Assembly: GCF_013167455.1 (NCBI RefSeq)
Contig: NZ_CP038328.1
Reading direction: 5' to 3' (one strand)
DNA: 64,000 bases
Source: Escherichia coli O157:H7
GTDB lineage: Bacteria; Pseudomonadota; Gammaproteobacteria; Enterobacterales; Enterobacteriaceae
The stretch's first letter is position 1. The number at the start of each line of letters is the position of its first letter. Position numbers and translations under genes: made by a program. Below the pieces are notes generated by a model, which saw only the letters and a program-made list of their open reading frames with translations, searched no databases and was not told the origin of the DNA. Below are positions 23,562 to 27,620 of this stretch, one piece after another.

Positions 23562-24725
23562 TTATCCAGCAATGTAATGCGGAACGAAACGTGAGGTGTC
23601 TTTGGTGATCAGTGTGTTATCTTCACGGATCCCCATTCCGCACGCTTCATCATCGACAATCCAGCTACCGATGAGTGTGTAGCTATCGCCAAACCGCGGC
23701 AGAGGTTGAAACGCCTGGTAGATCATCGGTTCATCGGCGTAATCACCATCAGCGTGGTCAACGACGTTATTCTGGCCGTCGAAAATGGTGACATTTCCGC
23801 CTTCGCGCGAGTAGATCGGTTTACGCACATAGCTTTCGCCAGCGGCAATCTGCGGTTTTTCACCCTCAAACCAGGATGCAAGAAGGTTAGGATGACCAGG
23901 GAAGAAGCGCCAAAGCAGCGGCATTAGCCCTTTATTACTCAAGATACTTTTCCATAACGGCTCCACCCATTGCTCGCGACGCTTGCGCAGCAGCGGACCG
24001 TTATCGTCACGCATCATCCACTCCAGCGGATACAGCTTAAATGCACGCTGGATGACATTATCATCAAGATCGGTCAGTACGCCGCCGACGCCCAAACCGA
24101 GATCTTCAATGTAGATAAACCGCGACTCCTGCCCTGCCTGCTGGGCGCAGTCCTGCAAGTACAGCACGGTACTCCTGTCTTCATCGGTGTCCTGACAGCA
24201 GCAAAAATAAAACGGTTCCCGACTGTAAAGCTCGCTAAAGCGTGAAATCAGGCGTTCCTGAATAGCATTGTACTGATCGGCATCACGCGGAATAATGCCG
24301 CTGCGCCGGGCATCCTCCAGCCACAGCCACTGGAAATAAGCCGACTCGTACAATGAAGTTGGCGTATCGGCGTTGTACTCCAGCAGCTTCACCGGCGCAT
24401 TGCCACACCAGGCAAAATCCATCCGTCCATACAGCGAAGGATCGCGGGCGCGCCAGCTTTCAGCGATCACATCCCAGTACAACGGCGGGATCGCCAGTTG
24501 CGTCAGGATCTCTTCATCTTTTACCGCGCGATCCACCACCTCAAGGCACATCTGATGCAGTTCCGCAGTCGGTTTTTCGATCTGCTCTTCAATCTGGCGC
24601 AGAGTAAAACGGTAAGCCCGACTCTCATCCCAATAGATTTCATTGTCGATGATATGAAAGTCGAAACCGTTGTCAGCGGCGATCTGGTCCAGATCCCGTC
24701 GCACAGGAACGTTGTGTCTCAGCAT
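23562..24725 (-). CDS. yjfC: glutathionylspermidine-synthetase-like ATP-grasp protein (387 aa)
   Basis: ORF 23562..24740; start at MLRHNVPVRR; last gene of the yjfIJKLMC cluster. Confidence 0.8.
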   Translation of the reverse strand: MLRHNVPVRRDLDQIAADNGFDFHIIDNEIYWDESRAYRFTLRQIEEQIEKPTAELHQMCLEVVDRAVKDEEILTQLAIPPLYWDVIAESWRARDPSLYGRMDFAWCGNAPVKLLEYNADTPTSLYESAYFQWLWLEDARRSGIIPRDADQYNAIQERLISRFSELYSREPFYFCCCQDTDEDRSTVLYLQDCAQQAGQESRFIYIEDLGLGVGGVLTDLDDNVIQRAFKLYPLEWMMRDDNGPLLRKRREQWVEPLWKSILSNKGLMPLLWRFFPGHPNLLASWFEGEKPQIAAGESYVRKPIYSREGGNVTIFDGQNNVVDHADGDYADEPMIYQAFQPLPRFGDSYTLIGSWIVDDEACGMGIREDNTLITKDTSRFVPHYIAG

Positions 24726-24727
24726 GA

Positions 24728-25366
24728 TTAGCCTCCCCAATGCCCACGGGCGCTGGAAGAACGACCATAGCCGCCGCGAGAAACGGTTGACGCTTTTTTG
24801 GTGGTAAAGCCGCCTGAAGAGTAAGACTCTTTTTTGCCAGAACCGGAGCGCCAGGAGTAATCACCGGAAGTGTTGCGCCAGACGGGGCGGGAAGCAAATG
24901 AGGATCCGCCGCTGTTATAGACAAACGGCTCATCGCGATCTTTACGAATAACCCGGCTTAACAAAAATCCAGAAACGACCGGGATCCAACTCTGTTCAAC
25001 ATTGTCGTAGTAGCAATTTTCGTACTTAGACTGACAGTTCTGCTGAGTCATATTCTTCGGAACATCGGCATAAAATGCCGCTTTGGCGTTGTTCCAGCCA
25101 CGCGCGCAAATGTCGGCATTATTACCGTCATCAATACAATCCTGCACTGTCGAATAAAACGTTCCGTCGCCGTCGTTATCGACATCGCCACTATCGCCAC
25201 AACCTTTCAATACAAAAAAAGCGGCACCGCCCATTAGCGCCAACGTTAAGTATTTTTGTGCGTAGCGATTGCGACGCGGTTCAAAAGGATTATTCGGTCT
25301 ACCAATGCGACTGATCGCTCCGTGACCAATTTTACTGTTATTTCTTGATTTGCGTTTTCTGGCCAT
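24728..25366 (-). CDS. yjfM: DUF1190 protein with N-terminal TM/signal and Gly/Ser-rich tail (212 aa)
   Basis: 212-aa ORF overlapping the yjfC start. Confidence 0.7.
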   Translation of the reverse strand: MARKRKSRNNSKIGHGAISRIGRPNNPFEPRRNRYAQKYLTLALMGGAAFFVLKGCGDSGDVDNDGDGTFYSTVQDCIDDGNNADICARGWNNAKAAFYADVPKNMTQQNCQSKYENCYYDNVEQSWIPVVSGFLLSRVIRKDRDEPFVYNSGGSSFASRPVWRNTSGDYSWRSGSGKKESYSSGGFTTKKASTVSRGGYGRSSSARGHWGG

Positions 25367-25375
25367 GATCGTCCA

Positions 25376-25774
25376 TTACCATGTCATACAAGCTGCGTTA
25401 AAAATACCGCCAGCCAGCGCGGCGGTTCCCATAAACATTCCTGCTGCGGTATTGTGATTAATAATTTTTTCGCTTAATGCGGGCATATAAAGTCTGACAC
25501 CAGCAAAAACGAGTAACTGAATCACCAGTGCAATCCCGCCCCAGGCGAAATAGTCTGGAATACTCACCGCATTGATTGCCGCACTGGATAAGGGGATCAC
25601 GTAACCCAACAATGTACCGCTGAACGCCAGTGACGCTGCGGTATTATTGTTTTTGATTAATTGCCATTCATTGTGCGGTGTAATTTTGGAGTAGATAAAC
25701 AGAAAAATAATCACCATAGCCACGCCAATAAAAAAATAGGCACTAAAGGCAAGAAGTGAATCCAGTATATGCAT
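25376..25774 (-). CDS. yjfL: DUF350 small inner-membrane protein (132 aa)
   Basis: ORF 25376..25855; start at MHILDSLLAF; four predicted TM helices. Confidence 0.7.
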   Translation of the reverse strand: MHILDSLLAFSAYFFIGVAMVIIFLFIYSKITPHNEWQLIKNNNTAASLAFSGTLLGYVIPLSSAAINAVSIPDYFAWGGIALVIQLLVFAGVRLYMPALSEKIINHNTAAGMFMGTAALAGGIFNAACMTW

Positions 25775-25791
25775 TGTAAACGTCCTTGTAA

Positions 25792-26451
25792 TTAACCAAT
25801 AATATGAAGTGATGTCAGCGGGATATCGACACCCAACGCGCGCGAAAATAACCACTCTGGCTCGCCGAGATCGTTAAAAGATTCCTCACCATTTAGCAGC
25901 AAATATTCGTAAGTATCTTCGGTCACTTGCCGCTGGTAGCCCATGGTAAAATTATGGACTTCCCATTTAGCATGATTTTGATTTTCTACTTTTTCCAGCA
26001 TGTAGACGGGTTCGATATTTCCCGGTTCTTCGCTGTTAAAAAATCGCTGCCAGCGTTTTTCCTGCCAGTTTAAGGTCATTGCCCCCATCGTTTTGGCGTT
26101 GATCGCCTCGCGCCAGTGATTCTCTTTACTGATACCGTAGCTCTCTTCATAGACAAAGAGCTTGATATCATCAATGTCATCAATATCTTCGCCGCCGGTG
26201 GTATTGATTTGCAGAAACTCATCGCCTGAAGTGTAGTAGCGGAAAATCTGACTACCGCCGCCCAGATCGATGTGGCTGACAGCGACTACCGTAAATTCCT
26301 CACCCGGCAGCGCAATCAGCAATTCATCTTCCAGCAAACGAAACGCTAACGTGTCGAGCGTAAAGCCACTATTGAGATGAAGTCCCAGCGGACCGCGAGC
26401 GATAGCAGGCTTATTATCCTTGCCAAACAGACGCTGGAAAAAACCAGACAT
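25792..26451 (-). CDS. yjfK: DUF2491 protein (219 aa)
   Basis: 219-aa ORF in operon position. Confidence 0.7.
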   Translation of the reverse strand: MSGFFQRLFGKDNKPAIARGPLGLHLNSGFTLDTLAFRLLEDELLIALPGEEFTVVAVSHIDLGGGSQIFRYYTSGDEFLQINTTGGEDIDDIDDIKLFVYEESYGISKENHWREAINAKTMGAMTLNWQEKRWQRFFNSEEPGNIEPVYMLEKVENQNHAKWEVHNFTMGYQRQVTEDTYEYLLLNGEESFNDLGEPEWLFSRALGVDIPLTSLHIIG

Positions 26452-26501
26452 ATTTTATCCTTAAAATAGTTGCCAGCCTTGCAGTGAGGCTGGCAAAAAA
26501 A

Positions 26502-27200
26502 TTACTCGCCCTGTTGGCGTTGCAGTCTTGCTAATACATCCTGGGCGCTACTTTTATTGCTACCGCCAATTCCGGCTTCCGCCAGCTTTTCGTCAAGGTC
26601 GCGACCGTCTGCGACTTTTTCTAACTGTGCGGCAGCATCCAGGCGAGCCTGACGTTCGGCCTGACGCGTTTGCAGGCGTTTTAAGGATTCTGCTGCTGTC
26701 GAAACGCTGGAAGATGCGCCAACGGTAGAAGTCGTTACAGCCTGTTGTGCACGCTGCATGGCTTCAGTGGCTTTAACGACTTCCATTTGCTGCTCAAACT
26801 GAGCGATACGCTGCGCTGTCGCTGCAACTGCTTTTTCCACGCCATCACGGGAGACTTCCAGATTCGACAACACTTGCTCTTCAGCGGTAATGAGATTCTC
26901 AAGGCGCGCGATTTCTTCAGCAACTTCGTTAATCAACGACGGATTAACGTTCTTGCTTAACGCTTCCAGCGTACGGGCTTCCAGACTGGCTTTGCGCTCA
27001 CGTAAATCTTTCAGCTTATCGTGACTTAATTTCACCCGCGCCAGCAGATCAACGCGAGATTTTCCGGCTTTATCGAGTTCAGCTTTAGCGTCACGAATAT
27101 GCTGTTCCAGCATGCGCACACCCTGGGTTTCTTCAATGGATTCTTCCGCCTGGGAGATAAACGATTTCCCCAGCGTAAATAAACTTTTTAAAATTCCCAT
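26502..27200 (-). CDS. yjfJ: PspA/IM30-family coiled-coil protein (232 aa)
   Basis: Long heptad-like coiled coil (RMLEQHIRDAKAELDKAGK...) typical of the PspA/Vipp1 family. Confidence 0.8.
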   Translation of the reverse strand: MGILKSLFTLGKSFISQAEESIEETQGVRMLEQHIRDAKAELDKAGKSRVDLLARVKLSHDKLKDLRERKASLEARTLEALSKNVNPSLINEVAEEIARLENLITAEEQVLSNLEVSRDGVEKAVAATAQRIAQFEQQMEVVKATEAMQRAQQAVTTSTVGASSSVSTAAESLKRLQTRQAERQARLDAAAQLEKVADGRDLDEKLAEAGIGGSNKSSAQDVLARLQRQQGE

Positions 27201-27218
27201 AAATACCCGTCCTTGTAA

Positions 27219-27620
27219 TTAGTGTGAATATTCTTCTGTAATTTCAGCCAGATCCAATGCGTTATCTACCAGCGAGGTTATCTCAAGCAGGATATCTTCA
27301 AGAGAAGATTTAAGCGATAACGCCCCGAAAACAATGTAATACTCTTCTTGTTGTACGCTGGAGATTCCTACCGATGACAACGGCATCATCTTCTGATTTC
27401 TTAATAAGAAGGTATTAAATTCATCTGGATTGCTGATACTACTCACCGGACAAATAAAGGTTTCGATAATCATTTGGCGGGAAGTAAAAAGAATATTGAT
27501 TTGCAAATCGCCATAATCATTCATTTTAATAATTAATGCGTTCTCGCTATTTGTTACATCAATATTTTGTTCAGGTACAGTTTGCAGCGCCGTCGCCAGC
27601 GCCAACGGATTCCATGTCAT
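27219..27620 (-). CDS. yjfI: DUF2170 protein (133 aa)
   Basis: 133-aa ORF, first gene of the cluster; AT-rich upstream region. Confidence 0.7.
   Translation of the reverse strand: MTWNPLALATALQTVPEQNIDVTNSENALIIKMNDYGDLQINILFTSRQMIIETFICPVSSISNPDEFNTFLLRNQKMMPLSSVGISSVQQEEYYIVFGALSLKSSLEDILLEITSLVDNALDLAEITEEYSH

Follow-up and report, generated by a model that had tools for sequence, protein, structure and literature searches.

A six-gene cluster of Escherichia coli, yjfI-yjfJ-yjfK-yjfL-yjfM-yjfC, lies at positions 23562-27620 of a 64,000-nucleotide (nt) stretch of O157:H7 DNA (contig NZ_CP038328.1; hereafter the window) as six co-directional open reading frames (ORFs) of the minus strand. 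The cluster consists of two modules, yjfI-yjfJ-(K+ channel)-yjfK and yjfL-yjfM-yjfC, and its genes are likely to work as a single functional system. With a probability of roughly 0.55, these genes would form a composite system for maintaining the inner membrane, its two modules being evolutionarily separable and the invariant C-terminal Gly-Gly of YjfM being the most likely acceptor of the ligase YjfC. In the mechanism proposed, YjfJ would bind the cytoplasmic face of the stressed inner membrane through an N-terminal amphipathic helix and polymerise there, limiting the leak of ions and protons, and YjfI would bind YjfJ and hold the system down until stress occurs. YjfK would be the cytoplasmic beta-protein of the first module, with the K+ channel as its ancestral companion. 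In the second module, YjfC would activate the C-terminal carboxylate of a peptide with ATP and amidate it with spermidine, at the membrane and together with YjfL and the anchored YjfM; the product would be a membrane-associated polycationic conjugate that stabilises the envelope or signals its state. Gene content, homologies and synteny are shown here, and the literature supplies the ligase activity and structure of YjfC, the benefit of yjfIJKL expression in heat and, for Pseudomonas, co-transcription and repression that depends on BacA; the binding of YjfI to YjfJ in E. coli, the polymerisation of YjfJ on the membrane, the link between the modules and the acceptor of YjfC are the steps that we infer. 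The cluster, its protein families, the operon type and much of the genomic context have already been published, and a link between PspA and polyamines has already been proposed (Ravi et al., 2024).

The two modules were recognised in a scan that used an alignment of YjfC and YgiC as query against one genome per species. The resulting 80 loci, from species spanning Enterobacterales, Alteromonadales, Oceanospirillales, Vibrionales and Aeromonadales, were annotated with custom-built hidden Markov models; with the ligase as query, the scan is blind to the frequency of the DUF2170-PspA dyad without a ligase. Conservation of genomic context, which the earlier note on this DNA had named as a check, was found: the order I-J-K-L-DUF1190-ligase is kept in 46 of the 80 species, well beyond what chance would give. 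Among the loci with enough upstream sequence to judge, 11 have L-DUF1190-ligase without I, J and K (with the channel upstream in two), and tolC-DUF1190-ligase is the arrangement in 15/80. For example, in Citrobacter (L010, L018) and Franconibacter (L016) nsrR-rnr-rlmB is followed directly by yjfL-yjfM-yjfC (~4850-11170), yjfIJK having been lost and yjfLMC retained at an unchanged chromosomal site. The yjfL gene is present in all 65 loci of the non-tolC type, including 16 without detected I, J or K. DUF1190 stands directly upstream of the ligase in 79/80 loci, no more than 12 nt separate the two in 63/78, and because of this adjacency the cluster can be described as a joined pair of modules with an invariant DUF1190-ligase core. 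The cluster had earlier been seen as built around its PspA homologue. This view has to be given up, since the invariant core is the DUF1190-ligase pair, yjfIJK are missing from the 11 loci mentioned, and tolC-ygiB-ygiC has no PspA at all. The CesT-PspA dyad, for its part, also stands alone and in other operon types (Ravi et al., 2024).

The ligase of this core is a characterised enzyme with solved structures. YjfC (23562-24725, minus strand; 387 amino acids; GSP_synth, PF03738) is identical to the proteins in PDB entries 7UK6 and 7UK7 and 51% identical to YgiC, and it matches glutathionylspermidine synthetase (GspS) and trypanothione synthetase with E = 1e-32 to 1e-37. It shares with them the ATP-grasp PF03738 domain, and in those enzymes a C-terminal Gly carboxylate is amidated with spermidine. 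Unlike the bifunctional GspSA, YjfC lacks the N-terminal amidase domain, matching GspS only from residue ~253 onwards, and by published accounts neither YjfC nor YgiC has glutathionylspermidine synthetase activity. In K-12, YjfC is annotated as a peptide-spermidine ligase, an assignment credited to Pederick (2023). In vitro, YjfC and YgiC are reported to join spermidine to short peptides, and no physiological substrate has been assigned to either. The poor growth of tolC mutants has also been connected with both pairs, yjfMC and ygiBC, and yjfMC has been studied as a pair. At the annotated ATG of yjfC the junction with yjfM reads TGG GGA GGC TAA tc ATG, leaving 2 nt between the genes; the overlap of the yjfM stop with the yjfC start claimed earlier would require yjfC to begin at an upstream TTG, at 24740. 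The last codons of yjfM form the Shine-Dalgarno sequence GGGGAGG of yjfC, which is, to judge from this junction, translationally coupled to yjfM.

The upstream partner, YjfM (24728-25366, minus strand; DUF1190, PF06693), is by sequence comparison a paralogue of YgiB. Its orthologue alignment displays a basic N-terminus, a hydrophobic anchor, four invariant Cys, a basic tail rich in Gly, Ser and Arg (only the Gly/Ser richness had been noticed before) and an invariant WGG at the C-terminus. A word-seeded search with YjfM reached only Enterobacteriaceae, and a library of representatives was used instead for the C-termini of DUF1190 proteins. In this library 91 of the 113 representatives (50% identity clusters) end in Gly-Gly, against 4.3 expected from the composition of the tails. 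The residue preceding the pair is clade-specific: W in 56/64 yjfL-linked loci, and M, F or L ([MFL]GG) in 14/14 tolC-linked loci. Overlap with the Shine-Dalgarno sequence of the ligase gene was considered as the cause of the conserved Gly-Gly and ruled out, because the pair is encoded by all four Gly codons across species and is kept in 12 loci where the ligase starts more than 30 nt away or lies on the opposite strand. For the same reasons, selection on the Gly-Gly acts at the protein level.

GspS activates a C-terminal Gly carboxylate. Taken with the peptide-spermidine ligation by YjfC, this makes the C-terminus of YjfM a natural candidate acceptor. Other ATP-dependent ligases are known to act on C-termini, such as RimK on ribosomal protein S6 and the tubulin-tyrosine ligase-like enzymes, which add amino acids and not a polyamine; the likeness, an ATP-grasp enzyme beside a protein whose exact C-terminus is the substrate, would apply only if the acceptor reading holds. 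In E. coli a close comparison is tolC-ygiB-ygiC, where the paralogous DUF1190-ligase pair has tolC as its neighbour instead of DUF350 or PspA genes, and YgiB carries a lipobox (LAGC) and ends in GG after one of the [MFL] residues instead of W. The wider proposal sees the physiological substrates of the peptide-spermidine ligases in the DUF1190 proteins, YjfM for YjfC and YgiB for YgiC, and would have the co-encoded ligase amidate their C-terminal Gly with spermidine; at present it is an improbable one. In the literature searched, no paper proposing the DUF1190 C-terminus as a ligase acceptor was found. If true, a membrane-anchored protein would receive a tail of polyamine, a kind of C-terminal protein modification so far undescribed in bacteria, and in the yjf cluster the modification of YjfM would be coupled to a membrane-repair polymer of the PspA type. 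The DUF1190-ligase core focuses the question of the YjfC and YgiC substrates, which dates from 2012, on the DUF1190 C-termini, and bears on the tie between polyamines and membrane repair. If the acceptor lead fails, the yjf genes remain an ordinary, already-catalogued gene cluster.

Several results weigh against the acceptor step. Most DUF1190 proteins, including YgiB, have a canonical lipobox of the LAGC or LTAC type (pattern used: a short signal peptide followed by [LVI][ASTVI][GAS]C), and this lipoprotein signal predicts a periplasmic tail, beyond the reach of a cytoplasmic ligase. In YjfM the putative lipobox is non-canonical, LKGC after a basic N-region of 38 residues, and some orthologues do not have the Cys. 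A second transmembrane helix in DUF1190, which would make the tail cytoplasmic, was considered: the central segment W.P..aGFLL is too short and too weakly hydrophobic (median 0.75 in a 19-residue Kyte-Doolittle window) for a confident call. Finally, in an AlphaFold2 model of YjfC joined through a 30-residue Gly/Ser linker to the last 24 residues of YjfM, the tail remained undocked, with a predicted local distance difference test score of ~27-31; this fusion is a weak test, built on a shallow paired alignment of 20 rows and run without a control. The lipoprotein signal of the family, the lack of a confident second helix and the undocked tail also favour another reading, which keeps the rest of the preferred system but takes the product of YjfC to be a small, soluble peptide-polyamine conjugate resembling glutathionylspermidine. 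YjfL would handle this conjugate or export it, and the Cys-rich domain of YjfM would be a binding site for the conjugate or for a metal; YjfM would not be covalently modified, and its GG terminus would have another purpose such as sorting, proteolysis or the binding of a partner. The action of YjfC and YgiC on short peptides in vitro fits this reading too, as does the description of DUF1190 as a metal-chelating lipoprotein (Ravi et al., 2024). On the other hand, it leaves two observations unexplained, the strong, clade-specific selection on the exact C-terminus of the protein and the near-universal translational coupling of DUF1190 and ligase genes, and we regard it as a serious possibility with the odds against it.

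Two anomalous loci were met in the course of the DUF1190 comparisons. In Pantoea eucrina (L078, 9320-11164) DUF1190 and ligase appear fused in an ORF of 614 amino acids, which was considered as Rosetta-stone evidence and discarded: the junction reads gga gct aag, against gga ggc taa in relatives, an apparent 1-nt deletion or frameshift. In Citrobacter sedlakii (L012, 7246-7902) the C-terminus of DUF1190 is changed, also by an apparent frameshift. In both cases an artefact of sequencing or mutation is probable.

The first module is headed by YjfI (27219-27620, minus strand; DUF2170, PF09938), for which the search for remote homology, likewise named as a check in the earlier note, was successful: YjfI matches the crystal structure of Pseudomonas aeruginosa BacA (8Q8O) with E = 1e-16, and also the NCBIfam family BacA. 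The DUF2170/BacA fold has been classed as belonging to the CesT or type III secretion chaperone type, both by the authors of the BacA structure and by Ravi et al. (2024). YjfI is best described as a cytoplasmic CesT-like protein, predicted to be a partner or negative regulator of YjfJ; a published AlphaFold2 interaction probability for BacA and BacB is 0.981. The following gene encodes YjfJ (26502-27200, minus strand; PspA_IM30, PF04012), whose assignment to the PspA/Vipp1/IM30 family has been confirmed by the Pfam hit and by full-length profile matches with E of about 2e-9. A profile of 12 orthologues matches the Vipp1/PspA chains 8qbr, 8qbw and 6zvr (E = 1.7e-9 to 3.5e-9), aligning end to end (residues 1-228 against 1-216). 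The relationship is remote, because the single sequence found no match in the PDB and a profile was needed. For residues 2-19 of YjfJ, GILKSLFTLGKSFISQAE, a crude measure gives 0.45 as hydrophobic moment and 0.26 as mean hydrophobicity, as expected for a predicted amphipathic helix of the membrane-binding kind found in PspA. Two further motifs are conserved in this module. The C-terminus of YjfJ orthologues has the invariant motif L..KL..AGI...(A.D.LARL) at residues ~200-225 (window ~26526-26603), and YjfK orthologues have a short N-terminal motif F..(L/W)F.K at residues 1-12 (window ~26416-26451); both are candidate partner-binding peptides.

The operon type to which these genes belong has been delineated by Ravi et al. 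(2024) as a "third group", comprising a CesT/Tir-PspA dyad, an ATP-grasp ligase, a K+ channel, DUF350, DUF1190 and DUF2491. The yjf cluster is a member with the published order, and 18 nt separate the DUF2170 gene yjfI from the PspA gene yjfJ that follows it; unlike the full type, the cluster of the window is a channel-less derivative. The K+ channel gene stands between yjfJ and yjfK in 33 of the 46 full-order loci, and where it is present the yjfJ stop and the channel start share bases, as TAATG. It encodes a protein of ~350 amino acids with the Pfam domain Ion_trans_2; the copy in locus L008 has 356 amino acids (3070-4140) and a weak TrkA_N match. Alignment to a channel-bearing Escherichia locus places a 50-nt hairpin spacer (26452-26501) where the channel would be in the window. 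The channel gene is retained in 19/5426 E. coli genomes; its absence in E. coli is a derived loss, and the membership of the operon type stands.

The P. aeruginosa operon of the orthologous type is bacABCDEF (PA3732-PA3727, the "biofilm-associated cluster"), in which the DUF2170 protein BacA corresponds to YjfI and BacB is a PspA_IM30 protein, and the downstream genes are co-transcribed and co-regulated. Unlike the E. coli cluster, this operon has described mutant defects in biofilm formation, rhamnolipids and swarming, and a sigma-54 promoter has been proposed by its authors. The statement that the yjf genes had not been functionally defined is partly outdated in view of the ligase activity and structures (7UK6/7UK7) of YjfC, the operon type of Ravi et al. 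(2024), and the mutant, reverse-transcription PCR (RT-PCR) and crystal data from Pseudomonas. The biology described so far is scattered, ranging from heat tolerance, Pseudomonas biofilm and virulence to the ligase reaction and the physiology of tolC mutants. Within the core genome of E. coli the cluster counts among the better-conserved "known unknowns", and it is the only second system of the PspA type in this species.

A role in envelope stress, as the earlier note suggested, is plausible. In E. coli pspF-pspABCDE and in Bacillus subtilis LiaIH, an effector of the PspA/IM30 ESCRT-III kind lies beside small membrane proteins, as in the yjf cluster, and protection of the inner membrane would be expected. 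Moreover, yjfIJKL carried on a plasmid raises the growth rate at 42 C 1.21-fold (PMC11472167), and the same four genes are strongly upregulated in heat-evolved strains (PMC12492005). Unlike the Psp and Lia systems, the yjf genes have a CesT-like partner and are coupled to a polyamine ligase. Against a stress induction like that of psp, the cluster has no sigma-54 promoter and no PspB, PspC or PspF partner (no match to TGGCAC-N5-TTGCW was found with up to three mismatches on the minus strand of 27621-27760), and the yjfIJKL expression module stays silent across the remaining PRECISE-1K samples (PMC12492005). The heat-evolution paper puts the upregulation down to the loss of a single nt, 80 bp before the start of yjfI (PMC12492005). 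Counted back along the spacer, position -80 falls on the final T in the T9 tract (27701-27709) of the rlmB terminator, and the deletion may, as we infer from this position, act through read-through from nsrR-rnr-rlmB and not through a promoter change.

Of the remaining two proteins, YjfK (25792-26451, minus strand; DUF2491) is all-beta and predicted to be cytoplasmic; for it the search for remote homology was less fruitful, and a solved structural relative was not found. YjfL (25376-25774, minus strand; DUF350, PF03994; 132 amino acids from the RefSeq start) has four hydrophobic segments in its hydropathy profile, two strong and two moderate, in accordance with the four-transmembrane topology that had been read from the sequence, and is predicted to be an inner-membrane protein. 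Both proteins enter a different model that was proposed from structure predictions and casts YjfK as a primitive beta-barrel porin of the outer membrane, YjfL as a hexameric channel in the inner membrane and YjfJ as a large secretion pore, the effect being a raised crowding of membrane proteins or the export of misfolded ones (PMC12492005). The all-beta nature of YjfK suits a barrel; however, YjfK has neither a signal peptide nor a hydrophobic segment, and the DUF2491 family has been placed in the cytoplasm by Ravi et al. (2024) and by Salmonella annotations. In addition, the rings of PspA and Vipp1 are generally known to coat membranes and are not secretion pores. This model is very unlikely to be correct. 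Lower still we would rank the idea of a role in anti-phage defence or abortive infection, which draws its sole support from the name "phage shock" and from the K+ channel of the ancestral versions. No PADLOC family was found in the cluster beyond coiled-coil noise for YjfJ, and the genes form a core locus at a fixed position, unlike the variable defence islands: the cluster region is matched in 5425/5426 complete E. coli genomes.

Whether the six genes are transcribed together is a different matter from whether they function together. The co-directional ORFs recognised in the earlier note have been borne out by the ORF calls and by the RefSeq annotation, which matches all six gene calls, and the six domain families assigned there (DUF2170, PspA_IM30, DUF2491, DUF350, DUF1190 and GSP_synth) all agree with the precomputed hits from which the Pfam families were taken here. 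From yjfI to yjfC the intergenic gaps are 18, 50, 17, 9 and 2 nt, and the first four fall within the 9-50 bp stated before. Co-direction and short gaps speak for one six-gene operon, as had been claimed. In P. aeruginosa, RT-PCR has linked bacA through bacF in one transcript, and deletion of bacA raises BacB-F 6- to 13-fold. Against a single unit in E. coli stands the published record, in which nsrR-rnr-rlmB-yjfIJ is listed as a transcription unit (PMC3946193) and an expression module holds yjfIJKL and not yjfMC (PMC12492005), yjfMC being studied as a pair elsewhere. Also against it is a stable hairpin 3' of yjfJ: the yjfJ-yjfK spacer contains a GC-rich hairpin of 10 bp (26470-26496, minus strand; terminator-like scan), and the 54-nt stretch 26452-26505 folds with -17.1 kcal/mol (z = -3.4). 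Partial termination and stabilisation of the mRNA are possible roles of this hairpin. RT-PCR proof comes from Pseudomonas only, the E. coli evidence is indirect and inconsistent, and for E. coli one transcript of all six genes is unproven.

The same observations lend themselves to the view that there is no single system: yjfIJ would be the tail of the nsrR-rnr-rlmB unit, yjfMC (with yjfL) would be a separate metabolic unit related to polyamines or TolC, and the adjacency of the two would be historical. Indeed, the modules are separable in nature and may act independently, since Citrobacter and Franconibacter keep yjfLMC beside rlmB without yjfIJK and tolC-ygiB-ygiC works without any PspA; the CesT-PspA dyad alone or in other operon types points the same way, as do the listed transcription unit, the yjfIJKL expression module and the terminator-like hairpin after yjfJ. 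This separation is nevertheless at odds with the full gene order in 46 of the 80 species, which belong to several orders, and with the rearranged alphaproteobacterial locus L066, where the genes are still clustered. It also does not fit the transcript linkage of bacA-F, the joint rise of the downstream proteins in the bacA mutant, or the 9-nt gap between yjfL and yjfM, which leaves no intergenic room for a promoter. We consider a historical adjacency unlikely, and the two-module system with YjfM as the candidate acceptor is retained as the preferred reading.

The boundaries of the cluster are marked by different signals on its two sides. Upstream, the intrinsic terminator of rlmB (27703-27732, minus strand; terminator scan) marks the limit; the stretch 27690-27750 containing its hairpin folds with -18.4 kcal/mol (z = -3.8). 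Between the T9 tract and yjfI lies an 80-nt spacer (27621-27700, minus strand), identical in K-12 and in the window, which is AT-rich and is the putative yjfI promoter region. Its G+C content is 0.32; the same value over 27450-27749 agrees with the AT-rich DNA upstream of yjfI reported before, and the yjfI gene itself is AT-rich as well (0.37-0.39). By genomic systematic evolution of ligands by exponential enrichment (SELEX), sigma-70 hexamers have been assigned to TTAATA at 27649-27654 and TGGAAT at 27626-27631, with a spacing of 17 (PMC3946193). A consensus scan found no strong sigma-70 site in the spacer. The SELEX promoter stops 5 nt short of the yjfI ATG and, if real, would give a leaderless or nearly leaderless mRNA; a clear Shine-Dalgarno sequence is not seen 5' of yjfI. 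Within the coding DNA, matches to a terminator-like hairpin followed by a T-run occur on the minus strand at 25406-25426 (3' end of yjfL) and 25222-25242 (5' end of yjfM), both of which encode Gly/Ala-rich membrane segments. They could bear on the expression boundary between yjfIJKL and yjfMC, but they are probably chance matches, because nine terminator-like sites were found where 5.0 +/- 2.6 are expected. A search of Rfam gave no RNA family in 23300-27900.

The flanking genes are on the same strand, aidB downstream (21853-23478; 541 amino acids from the annotated start) and rlmB and rnr upstream (27747-31142), and nsrR-rnr-rlmB-yjfIJKLMC-aidB is the standard arrangement in E. coli. The stretch 23400-27800 is 100% identical to several O157-type E. 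coli chromosomes. Downstream, the cluster is bounded by the yjfC-aidB spacer (23479-23561, minus strand; read directly from the sequence), where the terminator scan detected no terminator-like site after yjfC, and read-through into aidB is therefore possible. An Ada-box-like element, AATgttttaGCAA, is located at 23548-23560 on the minus strand, beginning 1 nt past the yjfC stop; its designation follows the Ada box consensus, which we take to be AAT-N6-GCAA. Finally, a 14-bp inverted repeat, ATGGCAGTGACCAT / ATGGTGACTGCCAT, occupies 23496-23527, just 5' of the aidB GTG.

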